64,000 bases of DNA, from assembly GCF_003790525.1 (NCBI RefSeq), contig NZ_CP033635.1; one strand, given 5' to 3'. Each line of letters starts with the position of its first letter. Within the stretch, counting starts at the first letter, position 1. The notes beneath the pieces were generated by a model. It did no database searches. It saw nothing but the letters and a program-made list of their open reading frames with translations, and was not told the origin of the DNA. This DNA is from Escherichia coli (GTDB taxonomy: Bacteria > Pseudomonadota > Gammaproteobacteria > Enterobacterales > Enterobacteriaceae). This document shows, one piece after another, positions 26,351-64,000 of the stretch. The translations under genes and the position numbers were made by a program.

Positions 26351-26423
26351 GTGGGAATTCTGATGAGCAGAATTATCGCCACTACCGGACCATTCTTAGC
26401 CGATTTTCTGTAAGGATTTTATC

Positions 26424-26792: not shown

Positions 26793-26880
26793 CTCTCCAG
26801 AATAGCCTTCTGCTACGGCCTGGTGTTTTCACCACGCCACTTTTCCATTTTTATATCTGCATATCAGGAAAATCTTCAGT

Positions 26881-27254: not shown

Positions 27255-27445
27255 TGACACTGGAAGCCGACAGCGTTAACGTACAGGCGCTGGATATGGG
27301 GCACATTGTCGTTGACATTGATGGTGTTAATATCACTGAACTGATTAATAAGGCCGCTGAAAACGGTTATTCACTCCGCGTGGTGGATGACCGTGACTCT
27401 ACCGAAACACCGGCAACTTATGCCAGCCCTCACCAGTTGCTGTAA
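27251..27445 (+). CDS. yeeW: YeeW-like small protein
   Basis: 64-aa ORF overlapping the cbtA stop, in the position of K-12 yeeW. Confidence 0.45.
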   Translation: MMTLEADSVNVQALDMGHIVVDIDGVNITELINKAAENGYSLRVVDDRDSTETPATYASPHQLL

Positions 27446-27850
27446 GACAATGCAGTGATGCAGGGTATAGTGCCATTAACCACAGAAACAGCACTGTTGT
27501 CCTGTATTAAGCAGGCAAGAGAAGATGTCCTTACCCTGCGCCATCTGCAGCTTCTGCACCAGAACCGGTGAATCTCACTCAACAGGCTTCATTTCCCCTG
27601 ACGCCAGCCTGAATACAGCTGGCGTTTTCATTTATAAACAGAAAGGAAAACCGATAATAATGGAATGGACGCCCCGACCATGAAGCAACGGTAGGATATT
27701 ACTGATAAACCTTCCAGTGGAGGTGCGTTATGGCCGTTTTAACGATTAGCATTGACCTGACAAAAAATGAATTCCAAATCCACGGTCTGGGTAGGAACAG
27801 AAAAATCTAAGCTCAGAAAACGGATTAAAGTAAGCGTCAACGGAGCACCA

Positions 27851-36373: not shown

Positions 36374-36639
36374 GGTCATTCTCCTTTACGGTGATAACCG
36401 TCGCGTAAGCAAAAAATTGCCCCATTTTTTTGGATTCCTCAGCGACAACAACTGTCGATTTTTAGTAAATATCTATCCGGTACGAAGCCCGGCCTCTTGG
36501 TATGAATGATTGGTTTGAAGCAAAAAATAACCGACGCTGATGAAACGTCGGTTTTTAGTCATTTTTTGACAGCGGCGCATTGTGCCTAAATGGGGGGGAA
36601 ATGACAAGAGAATGAGAGGCTTGTCATAATAATTTTTCT

Positions 36640-38865: not shown

Positions 38866-38916
38866 ATGACACGCGTTCAATTTAAACACCACCATCATCA
38901 CCATCATCCTGACTAG
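38866..38916 (+). CDS. hisL: his operon leader peptide
   Basis: MTRVQFKHHHHHHHPD with seven consecutive His codons. Confidence 0.9.
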   Translation: MTRVQFKHHHHHHHPD

Positions 38917-38979
38917 TCTTTCAGGCGATGTGTGCTGGAAGACATTCAGATCTTCCAGTGGTGCATGAACGCATGAGAA

Positions 38980-39016
38980 AGCCCCCGGAAGATCACCTTC
39001 CGGGGGCTTTTTTATT
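38980..39016 (+). terminator. his attenuator terminator
   Basis: agcccccggaag-atcac-cttccgggggct hairpin followed by a T tract, between hisL and hisG. Confidence 0.8.
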
Positions 39017-43405: not shown

Positions 43406-45483
<2,078 letters not shown>

Positions 45484-45490
<7 letters not shown>

Positions 45491-46095
45491 CAGAACAACA
45501 ACGTCGCGAACTGGACTGGGAAAAAACCGACGGACTGATGCCGGTGATTGTGCAACATGCGGTATCCGGCGAAGTGCTAATGCTGGGCTATATGAACCCG
45601 GAAGCTCTGGACAAAACCCTCGAAAGCGGCAAAGTCACCTTCTTCTCGCGCACTAAACAGCGACTGTGGACCAAAGGCGAAACGTCGGGCAATTTTCTCA
45701 ATGTGGTGAGTATTGCCCCGGACTGCGACAACGACACGTTACTGGTGCTGGCGAATCCCATCGGGCCAACCTGCCACAAAGGCACCAGCAGCTGCTTCGG
45801 CGACACCGCTCACCAGTGGCTGTTCCTGTATCAACTGGAACAACTGCTCGCCGAACGTAAATCTGCCGACCCGGAAACCTCCTACACTGCCAAACTGTAT
45901 GCCAGCGGCACCAAACGCATTGCGCAGAAAGTAGGCGAAGAAGGCGTGGAAACCGCGCTGGCCGCGACGGTACATGACCGCTTTGAGCTGACCAACGAGG
46001 CATCTGATTTGATGTATCACCTGCTGGTGTTGTTGCAGGATCAGGGGCTGGATTTAACGACGGTAATTGAGAACCTGCGTAAACGGCATCAGTGA
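45484..46095 (+). CDS. hisI: Bifunctional phosphoribosyl-AMP cyclohydrolase / phosphoribosyl-ATP pyrophosphatase
   Basis: 203 aa; last gene of the his operon. Confidence 0.95.
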
Positions 46096-46144
46096 GTTGC
46101 GGGGTAAGCGGATGCGATATTGTTGCCGCATCCGGCAAAAAAAC

Positions 46145-46176
46145 GGGCAAGGTGTCACCACCCTGCCCTTTTTCTT
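46145..46176. terminator. Terminator between convergent hisI and wzzB
   Basis: gggcaaggtg...caccaccctgccc hairpin followed by tttttcttt; a second palindrome gcggatgcg...cgcatccggc lies just upstream (46108-46136). Confidence 0.5.
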
Positions 46177-46190
46177 TAAAACCGAAAAGA

Positions 46191-47171
46191 TTACTTCGCG
46201 TTGTAATTGCGTAGAGCATTACGCCCCAGCACAATCCCCGCGCCAACCATGCCACCCAGCAGCACCGCCAGAATCAAGGTAATTGCCTTTTTCGGGCTAT
46301 CACGACGAATAGGTAACGTCGGTTTCATTACATAGCGGTAAGCATGAATATCAAGATCATCAACCTTTAAGCTTTCGATATCAAGCAGGTTTTGACGAGT
46401 CTGATAGTAGTTTGGTGAGAACACCAACGGACGGGTCGCCTCATGCTTAATCATCGACTCCAGCGCTTCGCTCCCCAAAAGGAACAACGTATCTTGTGTG
46501 ATATCTTCGCCAGTCTGTTGAATCTGCGGTTTTGTCACCTGCGCCTGATTCGCATACTGCAACGCTTCCTGAATCTGACGGATACGCAGATCTTTCTGCT
46601 CCTGCGCAACCACTTCCTGCGTTCTTAAAGAGTCCTGCAAGTTTTTCCGTCCCAGAGCAAGGTTGTCCTTGAGATCCTTTTCTAGCTCTTGATTTACTTT
46701 ATCATCAACTTGCTGAATGTATTGGGCCAATTTCATTTGTGCGTCCTCTGCAGTTTGCCCAACATAAGAAACAGTCAATGGTAATTGCTGGTTCTTTACA
46801 GAAGGTTCGATTGTAAGTTTTTCTGGTTCTTTCTGATTATCCAGCGTTTCTGCTAATGCAGAGAAGGCAGAACTGAAGCGACCAATTAACGCCTCCTGTA
46901 AATCCGGCACTTTAGGTGCAGCCTGACCATAGATAACATTCATGGCATTGTTATAGCCAGCAATTTGCCCCACGTCAGGCTGAGTGATAATTGCTGTTGA
47001 CGTCCATTTCTCCTTCGCTACCGCCAAATACCCAATAGCCAGGGCAATAGCAACAATGACAGAGAAGATGATTGTCACCTTGCCACGCCACAACTGCACT
47101 AGTAAATCAATCAAATCAATCTGTTCCGGATCATGGTTTTGCCCAGAAACGTTATTATCTTCTACTCTCAT
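46191..47171 (-). CDS. wzzB: O-antigen chain-length determinant Wzz
   Basis: 326 aa from MRVEDNNVSGQNHDPEQIDLIDLLVQLWRGK; two transmembrane ends and coiled-coil periplasmic domain. Confidence 0.9.
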   Translation of the reverse strand: MRVEDNNVSGQNHDPEQIDLIDLLVQLWRGKVTIIFSVIVAIALAIGYLAVAKEKWTSTAIITQPDVGQIAGYNNAMNVIYGQAAPKVPDLQEALIGRFSSAFSALAETLDNQKEPEKLTIEPSVKNQQLPLTVSYVGQTAEDAQMKLAQYIQQVDDKVNQELEKDLKDNLALGRKNLQDSLRTQEVVAQEQKDLRIRQIQEALQYANQAQVTKPQIQQTGEDITQDTLFLLGSEALESMIKHEATRPLVFSPNYYQTRQNLLDIESLKVDDLDIHAYRYVMKPTLPIRRDSPKKAITLILAVLLGGMVGAGIVLGRNALRNYNAK

Positions 47172-47317
47172 CATTACCCTAACGGACTAAATAATTTTAA
47201 GTCGCCATAGTTTAGCGATAATCGCCATGAATGCCATAGGATAAATGATAAAAATAATGAATTATTACAAAGGGAACATAAGAGAATCAGGGCGAAAATC
47301 GCCCTGATAACAGGATG

Positions 47318-48493
<1,176 letters not shown>

Positions 48494-48731
48494 TCAGAAT
48501 TAACTTAACTGTGAATCATGATGTTTTTAGCATCCTGATAAGAGCTAAAAGTTTTAACGCTACGTTGTCAGATGGTCAACGCAACGAAAAACAATTCAGA
48601 TTTTCTTTATAAGAATAGCTGATATTTATTAAGTTAATATTAAGCAGTGAAATTTAGTCTATAAGATAATTGGCAAAAAAAAGCCCGGCGCAATATACGC
48701 CAGGCCTCAATTTATTGTTAGTTAAATAAGA

Positions 48732-50138
48732 TTAATCCAGCCATTCAGTATGGAACACACCTTCTTTATCAATGCGCTTATAAGTATGCGCCCCGAAATA
48801 GTCACGCTGTGCCTGGATCAGGTTCGCAGGCAGAACAGCGGCACGGTAGCTATCGTAATAGGCAACCGCAGCGGCGAAGGTCGGAACCGGGATACCGTTC
48901 TGTACTGCATAAGCGACGACATCGCGCAGCGCCTGCTGGTAGTCATCGGCAATTTGCTTGAAGTACGGGGCCAGCAGCAGGTTAGCGATCTGCGGATTTT
49001 CGGCATATGCATCGGTGATTTTCTGCAGGAACTGCGCACGGATGATGCAGCCAGCACGGAAAATCTTCGCGATTTCGCCGTAGTTCAGATCCCAGTTGTA
49101 CTCTTCAGACGCAGCACGCAGCTGAGAGAAGCCCTGAGCGTAAGAAACGATTTTGCCCAGATACAGCGCACGACGAACTTTTTCGATGAACTCAGCCTTG
49201 TCGCCAGCTGGCTGCGCTTGCGGACCAGAGAGAACTTTAGATGCGGCAACGCGCTGATCTTTCAGAGAAGAGATATAACGTGCAAACACAGACTCGGTAA
49301 TCAGCGACAGCGGTTCTCCGAGATCCAGCGCGCTCTGGCTGGTCCATTTACCGGTACCTTTGTTAGCCGCTTCATCCAGGATCACATCAACCAGGTAGTT
49401 ACCGTCTTCATCTTTTTTAGTGAAGATGTCTTTGGTGATGTCGATCAGGTAGCTGCTCAGTTCACCGTTATTCCACTCGGTAAAGGTCTGTGCCAGTTCT
49501 TCGTTAGAGAGATTCAGGCCGCCTTTAAGCAGAGAATAGGCTTCAGCAATCAGCTGCATATCACCGTATTCAATACCGTTGTGAACCATCTTAACATAGT
49601 GACCTGCGCCATCGGCACCAATATAGGTAACGCATGGCTCCCCGTCTTCAGCCACTGCGGCGATTTTGGTCAGGATCGGTGCAACCAGTTCATAGGCTTC
49701 TTTCTGTCCGCCAGGCATAATGGAAGGACCTTTCAGCGCACCTTCTTCACCACCGGAAACACCGGTACCGATAAAGTTAAAGCCTTCTGCAGAAAGCTCA
49801 CGGTTACGACGAATGGTGTCCTGGAAGAAGGTGTTACCACCATCAATGATGATGTCACCTTTATCGAGGTATGGCTTGAGGGAATCAATAGCAGCATCCG
49901 TGCCTGCACCTGCTTTCACCATTAACAGGATGCGACGAGGCGTTTCCAGAGATTCAACAAACTCTTTCACCGTATAGTAAGGAACCAGTTTCTTGCCTGG
50001 ATTTTCGGCAATAACTTCTTCCGTCTTTTCACGGGAACGGTTGAAAATAGAGACGGTATAACCACGGCTTTCGATGTTGAGCGCAAGGTTGCGCCCCATC
50101 ACTGCCATACCGACGACGCCAATCTGTTGCTTTGACAT
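48732..50138 (-). CDS. gnd: 6-phosphogluconate dehydrogenase (decarboxylating)
   Basis: 468 aa [27 protein letters not shown]... matches Gnd. Confidence 0.95.
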
Positions 50139-50327
50139 TGTTTACTCCTGTCTGAGGTGCTCACCGCTGCAAATAAGCGGCTGAATATGAGTAACGGGTT
50201 TACTTCTAATATATTTAGGAAAGGCTTATCTCTCTATGTCCCAAAAACTAAACCTTTTGGATACATCGACTATCAGATCTAAAAGACATACATTTTATAA
50301 TATCAAAACCTAATAAAACCATTCTAA

Positions 50328-51083
50328 TTAAAGTCTCTTAGCAAGAGCTCTTACTGAATAAATAAAAAAAAGAACTAATGACTTGAATAATGAAAAAGAC
50401 AATACTCTTCTATAAATATTCCATTGCCACATAGCTGCAGTGAACTTATTTGAGGACAACCCCGTATTATGTATATAATATCTGGCAAGATTTTTCTGTA
50501 TGCAATAAACCAGCTTTGCTTTTTTTACTATTGTTAACCACATTAGGTAATCTTCATGACCAATTTCCTGTTGATATACTTTCCCTATCTGAGTTGAGTC
50601 ATAAATACCAGTTAAGTTACCAATATGATTAGATTGCAGCATATTATTATATGTAATAACTTCCTTAAACCTTCTTTCTTTTATTACATTTGTATCAGCA
50701 TAAAAAACCTCATAGTTTGAACAAACAACTTTATAATTTCCAGCACTCAATATTTTCAGTTGTTCTTCGAGTTTAGTCTCAAACCAAACATCATCACTAT
50801 CACAAAATGCAATATATCTACCATTACAAGCAGCAATCCCAACATTTCTAGCCGAAGATACTCCCTTACCATTTCGATTTAGTAAATAAACAATACGTTC
50901 ATCGATAATAGACTTAATAATATGTTCTGTTGAATCCGACGAATTATCATTGATTATATATAATTTAAAATCCTCATACGTTTGTTTTAAAATTGACAAA
51001 ATACTATCTTTAATAGTTTCTTCAGCATTATAAGCTGGCATAATTATTGATACTGTTTCATTACCCATAAAAAGCCCCATCAT
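50328..51083 (-). CDS. Family 2 glycosyltransferase (O-antigen)
   Basis: IIMPAYNAEETI and DSDD motifs; AT-rich; start uncertain among three N-terminal Met codons. Confidence 0.8.
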   Translation of the reverse strand: MMGLFMGNETVSIIMPAYNAEETIKDSILSILKQTYEDFKLYIINDNSSDSTEHIIKSIIDERIVYLLNRNGKGVSSARNVGIAACNGRYIAFCDSDDVWFETKLEEQLKILSAGNYKVVCSNYEVFYADTNVIKERRFKEVITYNNMLQSNHIGNLTGIYDSTQIGKVYQQEIGHEDYLMWLTIVKKAKLVYCIQKNLARYYIHNTGLSSNKFTAAMWQWNIYRRVLSFSLFKSLVLFFIYSVRALAKRL

Positions 51084-51092
51084 TATTCAAAA

Positions 51093-52175
51093 TTAGAACA
51101 AGTATGATTTATAATAAAATTCTGCGATAGGAAACAGAATAACCTTTAATAGATACGGAATAAAACAGTATAATAATGAGAGATACAAACAAACGAAGTA
51201 TCTATTCTTAACAGTGTATTTAATAACATAAATTATCGGGATTATATAAAATATCACAAAATAGTAGTTAACCCTTGAAATAAAATCAAAACTGAGCATT
51301 AACAAATAAACATTCACCGTTAAAGCCCACATACCAATTAACTTTCGCTCATTATCTTTTATAACAAAAACCTTTAGTTTTAATAAGATAAGGAATAGCA
51401 AATTAAATGGAATCCAATACATTTTAGTTAGTACATTCATTATACTCACAGAACTTTCATCGAATGAGGATAAATAATGTGAGTAATAGGGGAATAAATT
51501 TTGCACTATATAATAAATAATTTGCTGAAGATAAGAGAAAAGAAACAATAAAAAAGTCAACACATAAATTTTAAAAGCATGTTTACACGCAAAAAAATAC
51601 GTCTTATCTGGAATTACGAGAAAACAGAAACCAATCAAAGCAGAGCGATGAAAACCTAAAGCAGCAACCATTAATATGAAAGATAACAATAATTTCCCTC
51701 TAAACTTATAGAGAATTGATATTGCAAACAAATAAATTGAAAATGATGCTCTTATTATATTCATCTGGGTATGAAATAAATTAGTAACAACCCAAAAAAG
51801 AAAAAAAACCAAAACAAGAGAATAACCATAGTTTTTCCATAACTGAAAAACAATAACAAACACCAATAAAGATTGTAATAAAGCAGTTAACGCAATAAAA
51901 CCTTTGAATCCCCATCCAGTCAGTTGATATAGCCTCATATATCCATAAAAGAGATATTCCTTATTTTGATAAAAGGTATCGAGTTCATTAGCATTATTAT
52001 ATATATTTTGATAGCTAAAATAATCTGTTCCAACACCGTATTGAAATGCTGGCAACAGAGTCATAAAAAAAACGCATATGCCCCCGATAATTATTTTCCC
52101 ATAAGGAATACGATTATATGCATTAAACAAAAACATATAAAAAAGCACAATAGTATTAATTATAATATATATCAT
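51093..52175 (-). CDS. wzy: O-antigen polymerase Wzy (EpsG-like)
   Basis: 360-aa highly hydrophobic polytopic protein, AT-rich, inside the O-antigen cluster. Confidence 0.7.
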   Translation of the reverse strand: MIYIIINTIVLFYMFLFNAYNRIPYGKIIIGGICVFFMTLLPAFQYGVGTDYFSYQNIYNNANELDTFYQNKEYLFYGYMRLYQLTGWGFKGFIALTALLQSLLVFVIVFQLWKNYGYSLVLVFFLFWVVTNLFHTQMNIIRASFSIYLFAISILYKFRGKLLLSFILMVAALGFHRSALIGFCFLVIPDKTYFFACKHAFKIYVLTFLLFLFSYLQQIIYYIVQNLFPYYSHYLSSFDESSVSIMNVLTKMYWIPFNLLFLILLKLKVFVIKDNERKLIGMWALTVNVYLLMLSFDFISRVNYYFVIFYIIPIIYVIKYTVKNRYFVCLYLSLLYCFIPYLLKVILFPIAEFYYKSYLF

Positions 52176-52858
52176 TTTTCTGCAATAAAAAGACGTTCAG
52201 CTTCGATAGAACTAGAGTTTAAATTTACAGGATGAGAAAAGTATTGACCATAAAATACATTATCCAGTTTCGCATTTCTTACAATGTAACTCCAGTCATC
52301 ACAAAAGAAACTATTTTCTTCCATTAACCTCAGAATTCTCTCAGCGCCTTTAATATCCACACAATAACAGCATGTCCTATATAACCAACGATGTGTACCT
52401 AATATTACTTTTCGCACCCCACATATTGATTTTCTCCCCATTATGACACGACTAAAGCTTTTTAGACCATCCTGTCCACCCAAAATATAGACACTTGATG
52501 AGCAGAATGAATTAATCATTTCGTCCAAATATTTAACATTTTCCTTGGGCAAAACGTCATCTTCCAAAACCACCAACCATTTCCTTCCACTCGCCAAAAA
52601 TTCCGTTAAAGCTTTTTTATGACTCAAGAAACATCCCAATTCCGACGGAGTTAAAAAACCTCTTCCAAACATCTTTGAGGACCTAATTTTAAATAAAGAA
52701 AAGTATTTTTCTGCCAATAATTTCCGTCCATCAATAGCATGAGAAACACGACATTCTATGTCATACTTCGCCATTTCATTTTTTAATTTATCTCTCCTTT
52801 CATTATGTTGAGGTAATGATATTATACAAAAGTCAACAAGTTTTCTTTTCATTCTCAC
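52172..52858 (-). CDS. Family 25 glycosyltransferase (LPS/O-antigen)
   Basis: N-terminal CIISLPQHNERRDKL... pattern typical of GT25 (Lic2B/LgtB-like). Confidence 0.65.
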   Translation of the reverse strand: MRMKRKLVDFCIISLPQHNERRDKLKNEMAKYDIECRVSHAIDGRKLLAEKYFSLFKIRSSKMFGRGFLTPSELGCFLSHKKALTEFLASGRKWLVVLEDDVLPKENVKYLDEMINSFCSSSVYILGGQDGLKSFSRVIMGRKSICGVRKVILGTHRWLYRTCCYCVDIKGAERILRLMEENSFFCDDWSYIVRNAKLDNVFYGQYFSHPVNLNSSSIEAERLFIAEK

Positions 52859-53664
52859 TTCCTTTTACTGGACAGTTGTTTTAATCTTTTATAAAAATAT
52901 GAAAGCATATATCTTATAACTGTTATGAATGCAAGACAAAATGCATTATTTAGGGACGTTCTGTAAACCTCCAGAGCAAGCTCAACTATTTGTTTTGGTG
53001 TATATTTATATCCCCGTCCATAGGATATTTTAATTTGAGACCCTCCCAGAGTTCTCACAGAAATTAGCGACATAACAGAAATTAGTTTTAGTTTTAATGG
53101 TATATCTTCCCCCCAAGTCAAATATCTTATTTTATAAGCATCAATGATTTTATTTCTACGATACAACGTATTAGATTGATTCCAACCAAGAGTAAATTGC
53201 TTTGGATACCCTAAACACTCTATACATTCTTGTATTAATCCTCTGTTATATTTTTTTATTGTGAAAATATTACCTGTCTCGTTTTTACAATTAAACTCTT
53301 CCACATAATCACTTCTAAAGACGATGGCATCAACCTCATTATTTTCTAATAAATAATTAACACCCCAATCAAGAGCAAATTCAGCAATATAATCATCAGT
53401 ATCAAGAAAAAAACAAAATTCTGTATCTGAATCCAATAAGCCTACATATCTTGCGTGAGAAGGGCCTTGATTAAGAGTATAGGTGTAATTACACCCGTAA
53501 TTATTACAAATAATTTTATTTTTGCGCGCTTCATCAGAAACTGAACCATCATCAATTACAAAAATCTTACACTGCTTATAGCTACTGATTATTTTAATAT
53601 TTTCCTCTAATATTATGCTCGAATTATAAGTTGGTATTATTATTGATATTCTTTTATTATTCAT
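52855..53664 (-). CDS. Family 2 glycosyltransferase (O-antigen)
   Basis: ISIIIPTYNSS and DTDD motifs. Confidence 0.8.
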   Translation of the reverse strand: MNNKRISIIIPTYNSSIILEENIKIISSYKQCKIFVIDDGSVSDEARKNKIICNNYGCNYTYTLNQGPSHARYVGLLDSDTEFCFFLDTDDYIAEFALDWGVNYLLENNEVDAIVFRSDYVEEFNCKNETGNIFTIKKYNRGLIQECIECLGYPKQFTLGWNQSNTLYRRNKIIDAYKIRYLTWGEDIPLKLKLISVMSLISVRTLGGSQIKISYGRGYKYTPKQIVELALEVYRTSLNNAFCLAFITVIRYMLSYFYKRLKQLSSKRK

Positions 53665-53672
53665 TCTATTGC

Positions 53673-54467
53673 CTATTTATTGTATTTTACGTATATGGCT
53701 TTCTTTGTGTTATAAAGGTTTTTAACATAGGATAACCGTTTAACATGCAAGTAAAGGGGTTTAATGATAGTTTTTACCCTGACGGTTGATTTATCCCACA
53801 TTAACTGTTCATATAATTCGCCATCACAATATTTCAGACCCAGTGAACGTTTATATAAAAACAGCTCATTGCTCATCCACTTCCCAAAAAACTCTAACCC
53901 TCGAAAAACGACACCATCATAATTTTTTGCTATCTGCTTTTGCAAAATATCAACACCGTATGCCGAAAAAATATAATGGGCATCGACTTTCATTAAATAA
54001 TCACAATCACCTAAAGAAAAACTAAAATTATAAAATTCGGCCAGTGAACCATCTCCCTTTGTCACCTGATCTTTATACCCTTCTCCAGCAATAGCGAGAT
54101 TTTTATCATAAGAGTAAAGTTGTATAGAGCAAACATCAGCTAATTGATTCGATAATCTTTCTACAATATCTCTTGTATTATCTGTAGAATTATTATCTAC
54201 AACAATTATTTGTGATGCTAACCCCGAAATAGACAATATAGATGCCTCTATATATTCAGATCCGTTTTTGACTCTATATATAACAGAGACACTTGGTATT
54301 TTCCTCTTATATTCATTCTGTTTTCTTAGCTTAGCTGCAACATAATCATCAAAATCTAACCGATTGGAGTACTTCTTATCGTTTTTCGCAGATAAAAAGG
54401 AAATAGTAAAAAGATAGTAATGAAAAGATAAAATTAACTTTTTTAAAATAGAATATAAACTCATCAC
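53673..54467 (-). CDS. Glycosyltransferase, GT2-like
   Basis: VSVIYRVKNGSEYIEASILSI...VVDNNSTDNT pattern; DXD-like VDAH. Confidence 0.6.
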   Translation of the reverse strand: MMSLYSILKKLILSFHYYLFTISFLSAKNDKKYSNRLDFDDYVAAKLRKQNEYKRKIPSVSVIYRVKNGSEYIEASILSISGLASQIIVVDNNSTDNTRDIVERLSNQLADVCSIQLYSYDKNLAIAGEGYKDQVTKGDGSLAEFYNFSFSLGDCDYLMKVDAHYIFSAYGVDILQKQIAKNYDGVVFRGLEFFGKWMSNELFLYKRSLGLKYCDGELYEQLMWDKSTVRVKTIIKPLYLHVKRLSYVKNLYNTKKAIYVKYNK

Positions 54468-55738
54468 TTTATCACTCGATTAAACAATAAAATACAGTAA
54501 ATCAATGGGATTATATTAATCAATGACACGACAATTAACTTAGACACAGCTATTCCAACAACACCAAATATGTTAGTCAGATAAAATGTTATAACAAGAG
54601 ACGGTATAAGCATATATATATGCAATTTACTTATAAAACCTTGCCGATCACTCATATTTAAAAAAACATATACAGGGCAAAATATTGCATTAATAATCTG
54701 CGTCATAACTAAAATAATTAACACTTCGCTAGCATTACTGTATTGAACACCAAATATAGATAATATCAGCCCTGAAAAAAAGGGAAACAGAAGAGCCATT
54801 AAAACACATGGTATCATTATGAAGAACATAGCTTTTTTAGTTAGCTCTTTTATTTCATTCATTTTACTTTGGCTGTATAAACTGGCGACCTTAGGTGCCA
54901 GAATTGTGCTAATTGACATTGCAAATAAATTTATAACCAAGGATATTCTATCAGACACAGCAATAATAGCGACATCAGCAGCTGGGAGCAACAAACCGGA
55001 AAGTACAACATAAGATTGAACAATCAGCATTCCTAATGAGTTACCAATGAAATACTCTGATAATTCTTTCAGTCTAAACGGTATTGACTCTGTTTCTAAC
55101 CGATTGAAATCGTCCCTAAATTTATAATACGAGTATACCCCCCCCCCTCCTCCAATAAGAATAATTGAGAAGAAGTATGATAAAGACACCAGTAAAACAC
55201 TTTCATTTTTAATCAGAACAATAAGTAATACAAAAAAAATAAACAATAAGGGTTGAAATATATACTGCAGAACAACACTAAAAGTGACAAGACCTTGAGA
55301 CTGTAAAAAGGAATATAACAATATATTTACTGACGATGATATTATCAACAGAATCGCCAAACACCATGTATTTCGTAATAATAATTGTGGCGAAAAATAA
55401 TGAATTATAGGTATTAAAATGATAGATAAGATAATACTGGATATAACACTCCGTTTTATGCATCTAAGAAAAAAAACGCCTCGTGCTTTTAATGCATATT
55501 TAACTGAGGCACATTTTTTCAAAATTAAATTATTTTGTCCTAAAGAGGATAGGGACGATATTATTCCAGTTACTGATAATAGGAAGAAAACCCCACCAGC
55601 CTCACTCATATTGAGCGTTCTTGATATCATCACACTCGTTGACAGCGCAAGTATAGCGCCGAATATCCTCAACACAAATACAGTTTTAATTGTAAACATT
55701 AACTTCTCGTTATTTACCCAAAGACCTCTTTGCAACAA
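54464..55738 (-). CDS. wzx: O-antigen flippase Wzx
   Basis: 424-aa polytopic membrane protein; first gene after the JUMPstart; contains an internal G10 coding-strand homopolymer. Confidence 0.8.
   Translation of the reverse strand: MLQRGLWVNNEKLMFTIKTVFVLRIFGAILALSTSVMISRTLNMSEAGGVFFLLSVTGIISSLSSLGQNNLILKKCASVKYALKARGVFFLRCIKRSVISSIILSIILIPIIHYFSPQLLLRNTWCLAILLIISSSVNILLYSFLQSQGLVTFSVVLQYIFQPLLFIFFVLLIVLIKNESVLLVSLSYFFSIILIGGGGGVYSYYKFRDDFNRLETESIPFRLKELSEYFIGNSLGMLIVQSYVVLSGLLLPAADVAIIAVSDRISLVINLFAMSISTILAPKVASLYSQSKMNEIKELTKKAMFFIMIPCVLMALLFPFFSGLILSIFGVQYSNASEVLIILVMTQIINAIFCPVYVFLNMSDRQGFISKLHIYMLIPSLVITFYLTNIFGVVGIAVSKLIVVSLINIIPLIYCILLFNRVIK
55138..55147. repeat. Homopolymeric C10 tract (G10 on the wzx coding strand)
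   Basis: Ten consecutive C residues inside wzx, encoding part of GGGGG in IILIGGGGGVYSYY. Confidence 0.9.
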
Positions 55739-55786
55739 ATAATAGGGGGGAGGGTATAGATACTACCCCGCAAGACGCAAAAAACA

Positions 55787-55797
55787 ACGCTACCGCC
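55787..55797 (-). promoter_or_regulatory. ops element (GGCGGTAGCGT) of the JUMPstart region, RfaH-dependent antitermination site
   Basis: Plus-strand acgctaccgcc is the reverse complement of GGCGGTAGCGT, 49 bp upstream of wzx on the transcribed strand. Confidence 0.7.
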
Positions 55798-56009
55798 CCT
55801 GGCTTAACAGCTACCAGTTCACTAACACAAACTTATAACATGGCAATCTTAATAAATTCGTCTCTAATAAAACAAGAGACCGTTTTCTAAATCACATGAA
55901 GCAAAAAATCACCATAAAAGATCTAAACATCATCTGATATTTTAAACATTAGCTTAGATAATCGGTTGACGACTTTCATATTACTATTTTCTCCCGCCTT
56001 TTATCTTCA

Positions 56010-56909
56010 TTAAAAATCATTTATAATTATTTCTTCTATTTTACCACGGAATTTTGTGCCTAGCATAATGTTTCTCAAACCATACTTCACAAACGCCTGC
56101 ATATAGCCCATTTTTTTGCCGCAGTCGTAACTGTCGCCAGTCATCAGCATTGCATCCACAGCATGTTTTTTCGCCAGTTCGGCAATGGCATCAGTCAGTT
56201 GAATACGTCCCCATGCACCAGGCTGAGTACGTTCCAGTTCCGGCCAAATATCGGCAGAAAGCACATAACGACCTACGGCCATGATATCTGAGTCCAGCGT
56301 CTGCGGCTGATCCGGTTTTTCGATAAATTCAACAATGCGGCTGACTTTACCTTCGCGATCCAGCGGTTCTTTGGTCTGAATGACGGAGTATTCAGAGAGA
56401 TCGCCCGGCATACGTTTTGCCAGCACCTGGCTGCGTCCCGTTTCATTGAAGCGCGCAATCATAGCGGCAAGATTGTAGCGCAGCGGGTCGGCGCTGGCGT
56501 CATCGATAACAACGTCCGGCAATACCACGACAAATGGGTTGTCACCAATGGCCGGTCGCGCACACAAAATGGAGTGGCCCAGACCTAAAGGTTCGCCCTG
56601 ACGCACGTTCATAATGGTCACACCCGGCGGGCAGATGGATTGAACTTCCGCCAGTAGTTGACGCTTCACGCGCTGTTCAAGAAGAGATTCTAATTCATAA
56701 GAGGTGTCGAAGTGGTTTTCGACCGCGTTCTTGGACGCGTGAGTTACCAAGAGGATTTCTTTGATCCCTGCAGCCACAATCTCGTCAACAATGTACTGAA
56801 TCATTGGCTTGTCGACAATCGGTAGCATCTCTTTGGGAATCGCCTTAGTGGCAGGCAACATATGCATCCCAAGACCTGCTACCGGTATAACTGCTTTTAA
56901 ATTCGTCAT
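56010..56909 (-). CDS. galF: UTP-glucose-1-phosphate uridylyltransferase paralog GalF
   Basis: 299 aa [43 protein letters not shown]... matches GalF. Confidence 0.9.
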
Positions 56910-57150
56910 TCTTTTCCTACCTCTAAGTGGCTGATAGTGCGTAAATTATTGCCATAGGTTAGCCAACGGTATGGCTATATGCCAAAGCTTAGTACCGCAT
57001 AACTTTGATTAAACCTTACGATAACACTACACACCATCAGCATCTGGGTTACTCGGATTACTCGGAAATCCACATACTGATAATTTAATCAGTACCTCTT
57101 TCCGAATAATCGTAGTCCAACCTAGTCCTTTTTTCTCTGACTCGTCTGCA

Positions 57151-58146
57151 TTACTCAGAAACAAACGTTATGTCGTCTTTTTTGGCATGGACGAATTCAT
57201 ACTGCAGAGTTCGATCCAGACCTTGCGACAGCGTATACGGTGCAACAAAACCTGACGAATGCACTTTCGTTGCGTCAAACTGTGTAGTTGCGCAGAACTT
57301 TTTCACGCGCACAGAGCTGACAGCGTATTTTTTGCCCATAATTTTGCTCAGGATATCAAAGCAATATCCACCCAGCATTCCTAGTGGGTAAGGCAAGTGC
57401 ATAGAAGGGATCTTTTTGTTCAGACTTTGTTCAACTTCAGCAACCAACTGGTTCATGTTCAGGTCTGGCTTATCAACGTAGTTATAAACCTCATAACCTG
57501 CGGCAACATTCTTCAGTTTGTACTTGATAAACTCAACAATGTTTCCAACATAAGCCATGGACTTATAGTTAGTCCCTGCGCCCACCATCATAAACTTGCC
57601 GCCAGCGATCTGTTTCAGCAAGTTATAGACGTTACCGCGGTTGCGTTCACCGAAGATAACGGTAGGACGGATGATGGTTAATGAACGTTCTGTTGGTGCT
57701 TTGTTATACCATTCACGCAGCACTTCCTCTGCCTGCCACTTACTTTTGCCGTAGTGGTTGAAAGGGTCGTGTGGATGGTTTTCGTCAGGGTTATGTTTGT
57801 TCAAACCATAAACAGCAACGGAACTGGTAAAGATGATATTTTTAACGCCATTTTTTTCCATGGCCGCCAGCACATTGCGGGTACCCTGAACGTTGACATC
57901 ATAATAGAGAGAAGTAGGGCTGACGTCATCGCGGTGTTCCGCTGCCAGTAGTACAACAGTGTCAAAACCAACTAATGCCTGGTCGAGTGCCTGTTGATCG
58001 CGAACATCGCCAATCTGTGTGATTTCTGGATAAAAGTGGCTCTGCTGTTTGTCCAGGTTCTTGATATTAAAGTCAGCAATTGCCGTTTCAAGTAGTCGGG
58101 TTCCTACGAATCCGGAAGCTCCTATGAGCAAAACGTTATCGTTCAT
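57151..58146 (-). CDS. gne: UDP-N-acetylglucosamine 4-epimerase-like (Gne/GalE family)
   Basis: 331-aa SDR with GASGFVG Rossmann motif and YGKSK catalytic motif; located between galF and wcaM as gne is in several O-antigen loci. Confidence 0.7.
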   Translation of the reverse strand: MNDNVLLIGASGFVGTRLLETAIADFNIKNLDKQQSHFYPEITQIGDVRDQQALDQALVGFDTVVLLAAEHRDDVSPTSLYYDVNVQGTRNVLAAMEKNGVKNIIFTSSVAVYGLNKHNPDENHPHDPFNHYGKSKWQAEEVLREWYNKAPTERSLTIIRPTVIFGERNRGNVYNLLKQIAGGKFMMVGAGTNYKSMAYVGNIVEFIKYKLKNVAAGYEVYNYVDKPDLNMNQLVAEVEQSLNKKIPSMHLPYPLGMLGGYCFDILSKIMGKKYAVSSVRVKKFCATTQFDATKVHSSGFVAPYTLSQGLDRTLQYEFVHAKKDDITFVSE

Positions 58147-58303
58147 AAATCACTTTAGTCTGGTTGTTACGTAAGAAACACAAGATAAAGATGAGTACCT
58201 TCCCTGAGTAGTCAATGCTGCCCAGCCCCAGCTTTAACAGTTAGTGTGAGGATTATAATCTTTTAGAACATTATATCCAGTAAGTTTATGAATGGTCGCA
58301 AAT

Positions 58304-59698
58304 CTACTCCCTCCGTTCCGGCAATCTAAAGTTAATCTTTTCCACATTAACAATATGGTGATTAATCCTGTCGATATCGACGGAGCTTTGCCCTTTTTCA
58401 TTCACCGCATGAACATTTGCAAGAGACAGTAGTGTTTCTTTTTTCGCCATAAAGACGCCGCGAACGTCTTTGCGCATGTCAAAGTTCATGCTCAATGCGG
58501 GTCCAACTGAGGATTCCTGCATCACATTGATATTACGCATAAAAAGATGTTGCGGTTTGTTGTGTAACTCCAGCGACGCACGCTTCATCTCAATGTTAGT
58601 CAGCGCCACAAAGGAGACAGCATTCCCGGCGGAGATTTGAATGCCGCGCAATTTATAAGCAAGATGAGTATTATCCAGTTGAATATTATTCACCCGGAAA
58701 TTCTGCGGTATCGAGAGATATTTGCCTTTAATTACCCCATAGCCGATTAACATCCCGGCACTATTAATCATTTCAATATTATCAATCACAAAGTTGTCAC
58801 AACCATAAATAGCAACTGTGGCGTTATCAATACCTGCTTTCTTACTGAAATCCGGCGTGATATTACGGGCTTTGATATTACGAATAACAAAATGTTTACC
58901 ATTTTCAACATGGATCAGTTGCCGACAATCCGATCCCGTGATATTCGCCACGACAAAGTTTTTCACTGCCTGGTCTTCCGGGTAGTTGTTATCATAAGTG
59001 CTTCCCGCAAGACCTATGCCAATGCCCCAGTTGATTTTGCCGTTAGTACAGTTGATGCGCTCGATGACATGGTCAGATATCAAAATATCACGGTCGTTAA
59101 TCGCCACGTTCCATTCAATAGCGTCGCCCTGTAAGTCACTGAACTTACAGTTGGTGATGTTGGCACCGATAATCTGATTATGAAATCCCTGGCGTAAGAT
59201 GGCGTAATTAGCGTGGCTGACAGTGAGGTTATCGATGGTCAGGTTGCGCATGACCCGTTTGTTTTTGCCGCCGATATAAATCTGCGTTACCGGACCAAAG
59301 CCGCTCATCGCCAGCCCTTTGATGGTGCAGTCAGAGCCGCGCACATCCAGGGTGATGTTATGCATACTGCCGCCCTCCTCCCCTGTCACCTGGCTGCCGT
59401 CCTGTAAGACAAATCGCCCTCTGCCGTTGCCGCGCAAGCTTCCAAGAATGTGTAACGTTTTACCGGGAGGGATAAAGATGCCGGTGTTGATATTGTCACA
59501 AACCAATCCGCCAGGCACGACAACCGTTTGCCCTTCGCTGAAGGCTTGTTTAAATGAGGCGATCCAGTCGTGAGGGTTGTAGTCGTTAATGTTTACGCTT
59601 TGTCGGGCGGATAGTGCGCGAGCGAAAGGGGTATGAAGGAAGGCAAGCGCGGAGCTTGCCGTCAGGAAGGTGCGTCGGGAGAGTGTTTTAAATGGCAT
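58304..59698 (-). CDS. wcaM: Colanic acid biosynthesis protein WcaM
   Basis: 464 aa with Tat-like signal [21 protein letters not shown]. Confidence 0.9.
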
Positions 59699-59708
59699 AC
59701 GTTCTCCT

Positions 59709-60929
59709 CTATAAAGCCTGCAGCAAGCTGGCGAGTTCTCGATTGATCACCTGCTGGTTAAAATCGTGTTCGACTTTTTCGCGAGCACGTTTGACGACAG
59801 GAGCCAGTTCGTCGGTGTCCAGTTGGCTAAACGCCGCCAGTCGTTGCGCCAGTGCGCGAGCATCGTTCTCAGGCACCAACCAGCCGGATTTATCGGCCTC
59901 CACCAGTTCAGGAATTCCGCTATGCAGAGTAGAAACCACCGGAATGCCGACCGCCATCGCTTCCATTAGCGCCACCGGGATGCCTTCCATATCGCCGTCC
60001 GCACCCGTTACCGAAGGCAACAGGAAGACATCCGCGTCGTCGAGCATCGCCTTCACTTCGTGGCTTGGTTTAAAGCCCGGCATCTCCACCACATCTTCCA
60101 GTTGATATTGTTCGATGAGGGTGCGCAGGCGTCGTTCCCACGGGCCAATGCCGAGGATGCGATAGCGAAATGCCACGCCCTGCTCTTTCAACTGAAGGCA
60201 GGCTTCGATCGCCACATGCAGGCCTTTTTTCTCGGTTAAGCGTGCGACGGAAATGATTTCCAGCGGCGTTGCGGGCGCTTTCACCGGACGCGGGCTAAAA
60301 CGCGTCATGTCCACGCCCATGCGCGATACGGCGATTTTTTCCCTCGGGCAGCCCATTTTTTGCAGCCTTCCGGCCCACAGATTGCTTATTGGTAACATCA
60401 GGTCGCCACGGCGAAACAGTTGTTGATATTCGGGAGTGTAGTGGTTGAGCACTTCCCGACTGGAGATATCAATACCGTGGAAGATAGTGGCAATTTTGCC
60501 GCGAATGACACCCAGTTCGCGTAGTTTTGCCGCGGTTACCCCAGCAGGGCCAAAATGAGCGATAAACACATCGGCATGAAACGGTGTTGCGACCTGGCCG
60601 CAAATGGCAGACAAAATCAGGTTCCGCGACTCGGCACCATAGCGTTTGAGGTTAAGCGCCTGCCAGGTATTTTTACGATGAATGCCGCGTAAGGTCTGAC
60701 TGGCTCGGTGGCGCAGTTTCGCCACTTTGCCCGTAGGTTCGTCCTGTAACCAGCGGGTTCTGGCGGCAAGGTTGTATTTCGTCCATGCCGCGTGGGTGTT
60801 CTGGGTGTCGCCTTTTTGCAGCGCGAGAATCTCCACCTCAAATCCCATATCAATAAACGCGGTAATTTGGTTAAGGACGAAGGTTTCTGAAGACAGCGGG
60901 AATTTCAGTAAAAAGAAGCCAACCTTCAT
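59709..60929 (-). CDS. wcaL: Colanic acid glycosyltransferase WcaL
   Basis: 406-aa GT1-family protein in conserved position. Confidence 0.9.
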
Positions 60930-62206
60930 TTCACTTCCCCGATGCGTTCAAGCACAGATTGCACCATCTGCATTCCTGTCTGACGCTCACGACTGACGGC
61001 TTCGTTAAGTCGTGTATTCAGCGCAGGAAGCTGGCCTAAGGTATCCGCAACCATCGCTTGCAGGCTGCCGTCTAATAAATGACGGATATCAATTGCCATC
61101 TCTGGTAGCCCCAGTTGTTGCATAATCCCGGCGGATTTATGTTCATAGTTGATGGCAATCGCTGGAGTGGCAAAGTTCATCGAGATAATGGCAGAGTGCA
61201 AGCGCGTACCGACGGTGAGTTCACAGGCCGCCAGAATTTTGCCCATTTCCAGATCATTGAGTTCATCCATCACTACGTGGTAACGGGCAGGATCGCTGAT
61301 GTGCTGGCGCAGGTTGAGCGCCACCATGCGGTCGTCTTTGTTATAGCTGTCGATACCCGTACAGGTGGAGAGCGCAATCACCTGATACCCTTCATCGAGA
61401 ATGCGATTGACCACCCCGGCAAAGGCTTTTTCATACGCTTGCTGAGTGGTGCCGAGACGTTTGTCGAACGGTGCCAGTTCGCGTAGGGTAATTGCTACCG
61501 TTTTCTGTTGTGCGGCAACGTCCAGCCAGTGTTGAACGGCATAGCTGGCGGTGAAGTCTTCTGTGTGGTGATCGACCAGCCACGCGGTATCGACGCCATG
61601 TTCCACTTTTGCAGTGGTGATATTGCTGCGTTTCATTAGATCGAGGCTAACCGACTCGCGCAGGATCAGCGCGTCACAGTGACCAAAAACGTAGTTCGCC
61701 AGTTGGTTAAATTGCTCATCCTGGAACGGGCCGACGCTGTGACCAATCATAAACAGCGGCTTTTTCGCCATAAATGTGCAAAGCGCATGTTCAAACTGCG
61801 GCACACCGTAGAGATCGACAAAAAACGATCCGCCGACCTGAATAATGGCGTCGTAACCTGACAGCAGGCGCACGAAGTCGGTGAATCCCTGGGCGATGGC
61901 GATATTACGCAGCTTGCCAGTGTCGGTGACGCGTGAGAGCAATACCTGATGCTGGTAGCGGCGACGGAGGACTTTTTTAACGCGCCCGACAACGCCCGCC
62001 GCGCTGTTGTGTTGTTTCATTTGCAGGAACAGCGGATCGCCCATTACCGGGCGGTTGAGCAGCCAGGAAGAACTGACCGGATAGCGACTCATCACGTCCA
62101 CTTCGGCGTGTGGATTGAGGATGTTGATGGCATCAAGTAAGCCGCGCAAGATGGCGCTGTCGCCGCGGTTGCCGCAAGTGTGGTTGCCCAGAATAAGTAA
62201 TTTCAT
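60926..62206 (-). CDS. wcaK: Colanic acid pyruvyltransferase WcaK
   Basis: 426 aa MKLLILGNHTCGNRGDSAIL...; overlaps wcaL by 4 bp. Confidence 0.9.
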   Translation of the reverse strand: MKLLILGNHTCGNRGDSAILRGLLDAINILNPHAEVDVMSRYPVSSSWLLNRPVMGDPLFLQMKQHNSAAGVVGRVKKVLRRRYQHQVLLSRVTDTGKLRNIAIAQGFTDFVRLLSGYDAIIQVGGSFFVDLYGVPQFEHALCTFMAKKPLFMIGHSVGPFQDEQFNQLANYVFGHCDALILRESVSLDLMKRSNITTAKVEHGVDTAWLVDHHTEDFTASYAVQHWLDVAAQQKTVAITLRELAPFDKRLGTTQQAYEKAFAGVVNRILDEGYQVIALSTCTGIDSYNKDDRMVALNLRQHISDPARYHVVMDELNDLEMGKILAACELTVGTRLHSAIISMNFATPAIAINYEHKSAGIMQQLGLPEMAIDIRHLLDGSLQAMVADTLGQLPALNTRLNEAVSRERQTGMQMVQSVLERIGEVK

Positions 62207-62298
62207 TATGACCTCAAAAGGAGTTCTAAATTGCGTCGGTGCTATAGTTGATGATTAAGAGTTAAACCGGTGACATATTCAAAGCTGTGCTCGATCAG

Positions 62299-62336
62299 TC
62301 CCCTCGCCCCCTGGGGAGAGGGTTAGGGTGAGGGGG
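62299..62336. repeat. GC-rich imperfect palindromic intergenic repeat
   Basis: cccctcgccccctggggagagggttagggtgaggggg between wcaK and wzxC; repeat family not assigned. Confidence 0.3.
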
Positions 62337-62367
62337 AAAATGCGCACGACCTTACGGGGATAGCCAT

Positions 62368-63846
62368 TCACCCCGCCCGTAAAAGCATTTTCATTTTTTC
62401 GCTGCGACAAAACTGACGCTTCACTTCCACCACAAGCGGATGGCGCGACAGCACAATCATCACCACAAACGCCAGCACACCCGTGGCTATTTGCACCGCC
62501 AGCAGCATCCCCAGCGCCAGTTGCCCTTTCAGCACAATGCCCAGCGCATAACTGTCCACCAGCGTCGGCAGCGAGAGATAAAACGGCAGCCACAAACTCA
62601 GGATGTACTGGCGATAACTGGAACCGAGCACCGGTTTAATCATCACGAAATAGCTCAGAATGGTGTTGATAATCTGCACCAGCAGGAAGCCAAGCGTGAC
62701 GCCGATTGCGCCCGCCATCTGCCCACCAATAACAATCGCCGGAATAAACAGAAATGTTTTGAATACGTTGAATTTAAAGCTGATGTCCACCCGTGCTTTC
62801 GCCATCAGCAGCGAACCAATCGGGTTACCCACGGAGCGCAGTAGCCCCACCACACACAGCAATTGCAGCACCGGAATAATGCTGTTCCACTTCTCACCAA
62901 AGACCAGCGGTACAAAGTTATTCGACACCACCATCAGCCCCAGCAGCGCCGGAAAGTTGATAATCCCCACTACCGACAGCAGCTTGTAGAAGTTAACGCG
63001 CAGCTTTTCGGTGTCGTCCTGAATTTTGGCAAATGCCGGAAACAACACGCGGGTGATGATTGGGTTCAGCTTCATCGGCGGCACAACGGCCACGTTGTAC
63101 GCCAGGTTGTATCCCCCTGCTACGCCCGCGCCGAGAATACGCGCCAGCACCAGCGTTGAAAGGTTGGTGTTGAGATAGTTGATGATGCTGTCCGCCGTCA
63201 GCCAGGCACCAAAGCGTAAGTTCGGTGCCACCGACGCCAGCGAGAAATGCAGACCGGGGCGATAAATTTTGCGGCCAAAGTAGCCAAACAGCAGCGTTCT
63301 CACCGCACTATTGACCAGATAACCGAGGATCGCGGTCATCGCCAGCGGCCAGAAATGGGCGCTAACCACCGTAAAAGTAAAGCCCGCCAGCACCGCGCTG
63401 GTTTCGATCATGCCGATTTTGTTGAACTCCAGCTCTTTTTGCATCAACGCGCGGAACTGTTGCCCGTGGGGGATCACCACAAACGCCAGCGACAATGTTT
63501 TAATCAACGGTGCCAGGTCCGGGTTATTCAGCACGTCGCCGATGAGATCACTCAACAAAAACACCGCCACACACACCACAAGCCCCAGCCCAACGTTCAG
63601 CCAGTACAGCGTGGTGAGTTCCAGGCGGCTGATTTCTTTTCGCTGAATAATGGAGTTAGCGATACCGAAGTCAGAAAGCGTATCTGCCAGCGCGATAATC
63701 ACCAGCGACACGGTAAGCAAACCGAACTGGTGGTTGTCGATAATCCGCGCCAGCACGGTCATCTGCACCAGCCCGAGGCCGATGATGATCACCGTGGCAA
63801 TCGCCGACCACTTCGCGCCGCTGATGGTTTTTTCACGTAAGCTCAT
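62368..63846 (-). CDS. wzxC: Colanic acid flippase WzxC
   Basis: 492-aa polytopic membrane protein MSLREKTISGAKWSAIATVIIIGLGLVQ. Confidence 0.9.
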   Translation of the reverse strand: MSLREKTISGAKWSAIATVIIIGLGLVQMTVLARIIDNHQFGLLTVSLVIIALADTLSDFGIANSIIQRKEISRLELTTLYWLNVGLGLVVCVAVFLLSDLIGDVLNNPDLAPLIKTLSLAFVVIPHGQQFRALMQKELEFNKIGMIETSAVLAGFTFTVVSAHFWPLAMTAILGYLVNSAVRTLLFGYFGRKIYRPGLHFSLASVAPNLRFGAWLTADSIINYLNTNLSTLVLARILGAGVAGGYNLAYNVAVVPPMKLNPIITRVLFPAFAKIQDDTEKLRVNFYKLLSVVGIINFPALLGLMVVSNNFVPLVFGEKWNSIIPVLQLLCVVGLLRSVGNPIGSLLMAKARVDISFKFNVFKTFLFIPAIVIGGQMAGAIGVTLGFLLVQIINTILSYFVMIKPVLGSSYRQYILSLWLPFYLSLPTLVDSYALGIVLKGQLALGMLLAVQIATGVLAFVVMIVLSRHPLVVEVKRQFCRSEKMKMLLRAG

Positions 63847-63847
63847 A

Positions 63848-64000
63848 TCAATATGCCGCTTTGTTAACGAAGCCTTTGAATACCGTCAGGAAAACGATTT
63901 TGATATCGAACCAGACGCTCCATTCGCGGATGTACTCAAGGTCGAACTCGACGCGTTTTTCCATTTTCTCCAGCGTGTCGGTTTCGCCGCGCCAGCCATT
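63848..64000 (-). CDS. wcaJ: Colanic acid UDP-glucose lipid carrier transferase WcaJ, 3' end only (continues beyond window)
   Basis: Minus-strand translation ...DIKIVFLTVFKGFVNKAAY-stop matches the WcaJ C-terminus; stop lies 2 bp upstream of the wzxC start. Confidence 0.7.
   Translation of the reverse strand, partial: NGWRGETDTLEKMEKRVEFDLEYIREWSVWFDIKIVFLTVFKGFVNKAAY

Follow-up and report, generated by a model that had tools for sequence, protein, structure and literature searches.

The 64-kb window analysed here, the whole stretch of Escherichia coli DNA under study, very probably carries the O-antigen gene cluster of serogroup O21, a Wzx/Wzy-dependent system. The cluster itself is previously described: Li and colleagues reportedly published it in 2011 (PMID 21205000), paired with that of Salmonella O38, and the structure of the O21 O antigen is said to have been published by Staaf and colleagues in 1999 (PMID 10542071). 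The copy in the window is intact and ordinary; its value to epidemiology is that it assigns the strain to type O21, and otherwise it matters little past annotation. A preliminary description, made from the letters of the window, had held that the serotype could not be named, and comparison with public databases now supplies the name.

Exact public matches exist for six of the six cluster proteins, all under O21 names, in records that include E. coli O21 and O21:H28. When the galF-gnd interval is aligned with RefSeq E. coli genomes having an "O21 family" flippase and polymerase, a single mismatch is found in 5871 bp (5870/5871 nucleotides identical), and the complete cluster is present in 34 of the 5426 RefSeq genomes. 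The gene order, galF-wzx-GT-GT-GT25-wzy-GT-gnd, is collinear with the annotated locus of strain TUM9803, again with one mismatch, and the O21 cluster represented by the RefSeq "O21 family" wzx and wzy and by UniProt B5T081/B5T082 has these six genes, identically ordered, between galF and gnd as well. Against the RefSeq "O21 family" proteins, Wzy is identical and Wzx is identical at 410 of 411 residues, the lone difference from the RefSeq O21 genomes being Q200R (window position 55101). The five remaining cluster proteins and the JUMPstart element are identical to the O21 references, and every open reading frame is full length. These comparisons establish the identity, gene content and intactness of the cluster. 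A truncated or incomplete cluster was considered and is ruled out, the gene content being that of the O21 reference. Nor does the cluster appear to be of a type needing additional unlinked genes: its genes are those annotated in other O21 clusters, and a review that notes serogroups with an anomalous glycosyltransferase count does not list O21 among them (PMC7685785).

The six genes between galF and gnd encode a flippase, a polymerase, three GT2-type glycosyltransferases and one GT25 enzyme, all on the minus strand (Table 1, where the glycosyltransferases are lettered A to D). They are tightly packed, with junctions of -4 to +24 nt, and AT-rich, at 27-34% GC; over positions 50500-55500 the GC fraction is 0.26-0.32, as against 0.48 for the whole window. 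The start of wzx is the ATG at 55699 and not the TTG further upstream at 55738. A profile search of the six genes found no domain of a nucleotide-sugar pathway, whether rml, man or another. The preliminary description of a compact, AT-rich Wzx/Wzy cluster with four glycosyltransferases and no dedicated sugar pathway thus holds in its coordinates, gene calls and Pfam domains, and its "GT2-like" label fits glycosyltransferase A, whose weak GT2 match is confined to the N-terminus and which has a DxD motif at residue 153 and a DxH motif at residue 161. Both Wzx and Wzy are recognised in the cluster by Pfam and by annotation, without wzm or wzt; a Pfam search found no ABC-transporter domain in any cluster open reading frame, and an ABC-transporter or synthase pathway was rejected, no such domains being present in the cluster. 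Pfam likewise gave no initiating phosphoglycosyltransferase domain in the cluster, which is compatible with initiation by WecA, wecA itself lying outside the window. In NCBIfam, neither Wzx nor Wzy nor any of the glycosyltransferases scores above the cut-off of a model, and these curated HMMs give no pointer to specificity. The nearest relative of Wzy outside E. coli is in Salmonella enterica (65%). Scans for promoter consensus sites (44 sites against 35.6 ± 7.1 expected) and for terminators (5 against 4.2 expected) were uninformative in DNA this rich in AT.

Table 1. Features of the O21 locus and its flanks, in window coordinates
Feature	Position	Strand	Assignment	Basis
Crossover inside hisF	45098-45174		Probable left edge of the putatively imported O21 block	Switch of mismatch profile, O21 genome TUM9803 against non-O21 KFu014
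wzzB	46191-47174	minus	O-antigen chain-length regulator	RefSeq annotation of identical sequence
ugd	47318-48484	minus	UDP-glucose 6-dehydrogenase	RefSeq annotation of identical sequence
gnd	48732-50138	minus	Conserved downstream flank	Pfam 6PGD, 452 bits; RefSeq annotation
Glycosyltransferase D	50328-51068 (alternative 51083)	minus	GT2, WbdN-like, 246 aa	PF00535, 121.7 bits; DxD (DSD) at 90
wzy	51093-52175	minus	O21 O-antigen polymerase, EpsG family, 360 aa	PF14897, 105 bits; RefSeq "O21 family O-antigen polymerase"; polytopic, hydrophobic
Glycosyltransferase C	52172-52852	minus	GT25 family, 226 aa	PF01755, 61.5 bits; EDD at 97; RefSeq name
Glycosyltransferase B	52855-53664	minus	GT2/GT-A fold, 269 aa	PF00535, 45.9 bits; DxD at 88
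Glycosyltransferase A	53673-54464	minus	Divergent GT2, 263 aa	PF00535, 33.7 bits, N-terminal part only; RefSeq "glycosyltransferase family 2 protein"
wzx	54464-55699	minus	O21 O-unit flippase, 411 aa	RefSeq "O21 family O-antigen flippase"; weak MatE and Polysacc_synt matches; many hydrophobic segments
JUMPstart element with ops	55786-55824	minus	Inside the 310-bp galF-wzx spacer	Rfam RF01707, 56.4 bits (gathering score 35), E 2.9e-10
galF	56010-56909	minus	Conserved upstream flank	TIGR01105, 665.5 bits (cut-off 659); RefSeq annotation
gnu	57151-58146	minus	Predicted GlcNAc-PP-undecaprenol 4-epimerase, SDR, 331 aa	O157:H7 orthology; RefSeq product name

The epimerase gene upstream of galF, which lies between wcaM and galF, had been called gne-like and credited with supplying UDP-GalNAc. 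Its product is identical to the O157:H7 enzyme at 329 of 331 residues (99%), which establishes orthology, and its GxxGxxG (residue 9) and YxxxK (residue 132) motifs are intact. The O157 enzyme has been reported to be inactive on UDP-GlcNAc and to epimerise Und-PP-GlcNAc to Und-PP-GalNAc, making it Gnu and not Gne (PMC3682973; PMC7685785), and the earlier claim does not survive this comparison. A Gne that makes UDP-GalNAc, as a donor for WecA or for a glycosyltransferase, is nonetheless the function one might read from some of the evidence: the protein is a member of the SDR-family NAD-dependent epimerases (PF01370), it is distantly similar to GalE structures, and the gene has historically been annotated as gne (PMC3682973). 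Those matches to GalE entries in the PDB are partial, with E values of about 1e-11 at best, and the protein falls short of the cut-offs of the galE model TIGR01179 (70 bits, cut-off 262) and of PRK10675 (55 bits, cut-off 394), so that by sequence it falls outside the GalE/Gne clade. Cunneen et al., in their Table S2, score O21 as having one main-chain GalNAc, with gnu needed and present and gne absent. With this and the near-identity to an enzyme that uses the lipid-linked substrate, we regard a Gne function as highly improbable. The gene product is, on the strength of its orthology, Gnu, predicted to make the GalNAc-PP-Und primer and not to act as a UDP-GlcNAc epimerase. This assignment corrects a common mis-annotation, in that the epimerase would work on a lipid-linked sugar and would not be a UDP-GalNAc-producing Gne.

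Comparison with the E. coli O157 locus (gnu/Z3206, WbdN) also bears on the glycosyltransferases. The two loci have in common Gnu (99%), the JUMPstart core and a WbdN homologue, glycosyltransferase D, which is 48% identical to O157 WbdN over its full length (246/248 aa, E 9e-81). Beyond these the loci differ: O157 has twelve genes, including pathways for GDP-perosamine, GDP-fucose and GDP-mannose, none of which is present in O21, and neither its wzx and wzy nor its remaining glycosyltransferases are related to the O21 ones. A review refers to WbdN as a beta-1,3-glucosyltransferase that has been characterised (PMC7685785), and glycosyltransferase D probably adds the second sugar, a beta-1,3-linked Glc, onto GalNAc-PP-Und. 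The likeness to O157 implies that the two serogroups would take the same first two steps of assembly, GalNAc-PP-Und and then beta-1,3-Glc. While wbdN is the first gene in O157, its homologue is the last in O21; a reverse order, in which the last gene acts first, is common (PMC7685785). Glycosyltransferase B bears the name beta-1,3-N-acetylglucosaminyltransferase in one public source, a putative function. Assigning a glycosyltransferase to a linkage from sequence alone is rarely safe (PMC7685785), and the linkages suggested here for individual enzymes of the O21 cluster should be taken as predictions of that kind.

From established knowledge of the pathway, we infer that assembly of the O21 antigen would proceed as follows. 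WecA, encoded outside the window and unlinked to the cluster, would make Und-PP-GlcNAc, which Gnu would convert to Und-PP-GalNAc; glycosyltransferase D would add the second residue, and the GT25 enzyme and the two other GT2 enzymes would then add three residues from UDP-Gal, UDP-GlcNAc and UDP-GlcA, giving an O-unit of five sugars, presumably Gal, Glc, GlcA, GlcNAc and GalNAc. All four glycosyltransferases are in inverting families, and therefore beta linkages are expected. Wzx would flip the O-unit and Wzy polymerise it, WzzB would set the chain length, and the unlinked WaaL would ligate the chain to lipid A-core. The adjacent ugd would be the source of UDP-GlcA, provided the O-unit has GlcA. 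There being no nucleotide-sugar genes in the cluster, the O-unit would be made from precursors synthesised elsewhere, and according to a review E. coli O-antigen clusters do not include the genes that serve UDP-Glc, UDP-Gal, UDP-GlcNAc and UDP-GlcA (PMC7685785). The earlier suggestion of an O-unit built from housekeeping UDP-sugars stands in this respect, while the part of it that invoked UDP-GalNAc from Gne does not. The O21 cluster may serve as a clean example of an O-unit made from housekeeping UDP-sugars only, which is a textbook phenomenon.

The presence of an ops element upstream of wzx, also remarked on earlier, is borne out by the Rfam match to JUMPstart. The window has a single copy of the ops motif, GGCGGTAGCGT, on the minus strand at 55787-55797. 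It has the core GGCGGTAGnnT and lies on the coding strand within the 5' leader, 88 nt upstream of the ATG that starts wzx. The 11-nt motif alone is weak, since at least one match to it turned up in 27 of 100 shuffles of the 64 kb; what marks the element as real is its Rfam score, together with where it lies and with its conservation relative to O157. In an alignment of the galF-wzx spacer with the O157 galF-wbdN spacer, JUMPstart is the sole conserved block, and the element is also found in the Salmonella counterpart of the locus. Transcription would start in the galF-wzx spacer, and RfaH recruited at ops would keep it processive across the tightly packed operon.

We considered whether an intact cluster might still fail to yield the canonical O21 antigen. 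It could be present but silent or defective, leaving the strain rough or O-nontypeable, either through the Wzx Q200R substitution or through the unlinked wecA, waaL or rfaH. The substitution is a non-synonymous difference from all 34 RefSeq O21 genomes, the three unlinked genes are outside the window, and rough serogroups with complete clusters do exist (PMC7685785). We nevertheless think a silent cluster highly improbable: the reading frames are full length, the other five proteins and JUMPstart match the O21 references, and the R200 allele recurs on 17 public contigs that are independent, as would hardly be expected of a lethal or null artefact. The exact protein is listed at NCBI as "O21 family O-antigen flippase". 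We would give just as little weight to an antigen altered from canonical O21 by unlinked modification genes, such as those for gtr glucosylation or an O-acetyltransferase. Side branches are added by prophage Gtr-type systems in several serogroups (PMC7685785), and beyond the O21 locus the window has nothing that bears on the matter, but for every part of the window the annotation of the closest relatives shows neither a gtr nor an acyltransferase gene, and O21 does not figure among the discrepancies in glycosyltransferase count mentioned above. An intact O21 cluster producing the canonical antigen is the reading we prefer to both.

The counterpart of this locus in Salmonella enterica O38 (serovars Mgulani and Inverness) has the same order, gnu-galF-JUMPstart-wzx-GT2-GT2-GT25-wzy-GT2-gnd-ugd-wzz, and a GC content of about 29%. 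This likeness matches the title of the 2011 report by Li and colleagues. The cluster-specific proteins of the two are 60-72% identical (72% for glycosyltransferase A, 60% for B and 69% for C); for gnu, galF, gnd and ugd the figure is 90-96%. The gap is consistent with either an old divergence or independent acquisition from a common source.

The flanks of the cluster bear on how this strain came to have it. To the left of the crossover inside hisF, the window has 1 mismatch in about 45 kb against genomes carrying another O-antigen cluster, one for which RefSeq annotation gives no serogroup name; from the crossover to the end of the window it has 1 mismatch in 18.9 kb against O21 genomes. It is thus likely that the strain underwent a serotype switch, in which homologous recombination brought in a block no shorter than 18.9 kb. 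This block would run from within hisF across wzzB, ugd and gnd, the O21 cluster, and galF and gnu, and reach into the genes for colanic acid. The import would be recent, because the block has gathered almost no mutations. The locus would in that case illustrate the replacement of an O antigen by flanking homologous recombination, likewise a phenomenon familiar from textbooks.

The six genes between galF and gnd constitute a member of the described O-antigen cluster of Escherichia coli serogroup O21, and the cluster is already known. The 5871-bp galF-gnd interval has one mismatch to the matching RefSeq E. coli chromosomes, which are annotated with an "O21 family O-antigen flippase" and an "O21 family O-antigen polymerase"; the whole cluster is present in 34 of 5426 complete genomes, and the content and order of its genes are identical to the annotation. 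All six proteins have exact public matches under O21 names in the protein collection, UniProt B5T081 and B5T082 included, and some of the records are labelled E. coli O21 or O21:H28. The O21 structure was solved by Staaf et al. (1999), and Li et al. (2011) paired E. coli O21 with Salmonella enterica O38 in a genetic characterization (both as cited in PMC7685785). Throughout 45139-64000, the sole difference from RefSeq O21 genomes is Wzx Q200R (codon 200, position 55101, C vs T); the R200 allele is public on 17 contigs, and two commoner alleles are found on 868 and 623.

The gene set listed in the preliminary description was found in full within 50328-58146, on the minus strand, which is the transcribed strand. 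The six cluster ORFs are intact, with tight junctions (-4 to +24 nt) and a GC content of 27-34%, against 48% window-wide; Wzx and Wzy are polytopic, and the catalytic motifs DxD, EDD and DxH were found in the glycosyltransferases. Domain searches of the six genes returned no nucleotide-sugar pathway domain, in agreement with the earlier claim that the cluster has no sugar-synthesis genes. O-antigen clusters range from 5 to 18 genes (PMC7685785), and this one is at the compact end, yet unexceptional. The ops element described upstream of wzx is likewise present: the window has a single copy of the motif GGCGGTAGCGT, within an Rfam JUMPstart match (56.4 bits; gathering score 35), and in an alignment of the galF-wzx spacer with its O157 counterpart, the galF-wbdN spacer, the JUMPstart/ops block is the sole conserved island. 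Two further gathering-level Rfam matches, to an sRNA and a leader, are listed in the table.

Features of the O-antigen locus, in transcription order, and of the rest of the window
Feature	Position	Strand	Remark
gnu (SDR epimerase, 331 aa)	57151-58146	-	first in transcription order
galF	56010-56909	-	
galF-wzx spacer			310 bp
ops motif	55787-55797	-	
wzx	54464-55699	-	annotated start ATG at 55699, not the upstream TTG of the ORF list
divergent GT2	53673-54464	-	
GT2	52855-53664	-	
GT25	52172-52852	-	
wzy	51093-52175	-	EpsG family
GT2	50328-51068	-	last cluster gene
gnd	48732-50138		after last GT2; ugd and wzzB further on
hisF	44714-45490		
histidine operon leader	38892-39015	+	132 bits; upstream of hisG
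sRNA STnc240	36520-36594	-	68 bits
CP4-44-like yeeS-yeeT-cbeA-cbtA segment	~25100-27500		after island
GTPase, dynamin-family, RdcB-family and patatin-like phospholipase genes	~17273-22728		
PfkB kinase, glutamine amidotransferase, DMT transporter and phosphotriesterase-related genes	~1779-5824		
accessory island	1-25000		IS66, ISL3 and IS150 remnants

The epimerase upstream of galF had been taken for a gne-like enzyme supplying UDP-GalNAc, a reading that is not supported. The protein, which has the GxxGxxG and YxxxK motifs, shares 329 of 331 residues with its positional counterpart in O157:H7, scores far under the galE/Gne model cut-offs, and is named N-acetyl-alpha-D-glucosaminyl-diphospho-ditrans,octacis-undecaprenol 4-epimerase in RefSeq; its gene occurs in 1314 of the 5426 genomes. 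The O157 enzyme is reported to be inactive on UDP-GlcNAc and to convert Und-PP-GlcNAc to Und-PP-GalNAc; Cunneen et al., summarizing Rush et al. (2010), renamed the clade including it Gnu, and their Table S2 gives O21 one main-chain GalNAc and scores gnu as both required and present, and gne as absent, in line with expectation (PMC3682973). Gnu orthology, this entry and the low galE/Gne score together indicate that GalNAc would enter as the lipid-linked first sugar, not from a UDP-GalNAc pool.

Under the general model of O-antigen synthesis (PMC7685785), WecA would make the Und-PP-GlcNAc primer, Gnu would convert it to Und-PP-GalNAc, and the four glycosyltransferases would add four residues. 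A five-residue unit is expected because the number of glycosyltransferases is normally that of residues minus one, and O21 is not among the exceptions given (PMC7685785). Wzx would then flip the unit, Wzy polymerize it, WzzB set the chain length and WaaL ligate the product. The last cluster gene encodes a protein with 48% full-length identity to O157 WbdN, a characterized beta-1,3-glucosyltransferase, and probably adds Glc to GalNAc-PP-Und, in line with the frequent arrangement of glycosyltransferase genes opposite to their order of action. Only housekeeping UDP-sugars can serve as donors, and their genes are situated outside O-antigen clusters (PMC7685785). One source labels the 52855-53664 product a putative beta-1,3-N-acetylglucosaminyltransferase. 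As GT2 and GT25 are inverting families, beta linkages are predicted from all four enzymes. The O21 unit presumably contains Gal, Glc, GlcA, GlcNAc and GalNAc, and ugd is a close neighbor of the cluster.

The nearest non-E. coli Wzy, at 65% identity, is from S. enterica. The proteins that cluster with it by sequence belong to serovars Mgulani and Inverness, both O:38 serovars of the Kauffmann-White scheme. Gene order in the Salmonella locus is that of the window (wcaM-gnu-galF-JUMPstart-wzx-GT2-GT2-GT25-wzy-GT2-gnd-ugd-wzz); identity is 60-72% for the cluster-specific proteins and 90-96% for the products of gnu, galF, gnd and ugd. Its wzy (8905-9987 of that locus, L006) encodes 328 aa in public records, but the ORF reaches 360 aa; the extended N-terminus (MIYIIINT...) is conserved with the O21 Wzy, and the extended gene overlaps the end of the GT25 gene, at its stop codon, by 4 nt, as in E. 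coli O21. The start codon in public records is probably mis-called.

The window is a mosaic. Alignment to TUM9803, an O21 genome, shows a single difference, at base 55101, between about 45139 and 64000, and 2-5% divergence further left. Compared with genomes of the KFu014 type, it is identical over 1-25000 and has one mismatch in 24975-45174; right of 45174, those genomes differ by ~1-5% in the genes that border the O-antigen cluster. The left-flank near-identity is shared with KFu014, ECONIH1 and others, all of which carry another O-antigen cluster. The crossover is a sharp junction within hisF, at 45098-45174, and the O21-like block to its right extends for at least 18.9 kb, to the window end. 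From these alignments, the mosaic indicates that the O21 locus was imported via homologous recombination. Serotype substitution normally proceeds by homologous recombination in the flanks (PMC7685785), and the hisF junction is the expected signature of such replacement.

In the non-O21 relatives, the flippase gene of the resident O cluster is truncated and adjoins an IS1A insertion (in KFu014, 13063-15452 of its locus, L005), an IS1 interruption that may make such strains O-rough and could bear on why selection favored a replaced O locus in the lineage of the window. A subset of E. coli genomes matches the accessory island at the left end with 100% identity.
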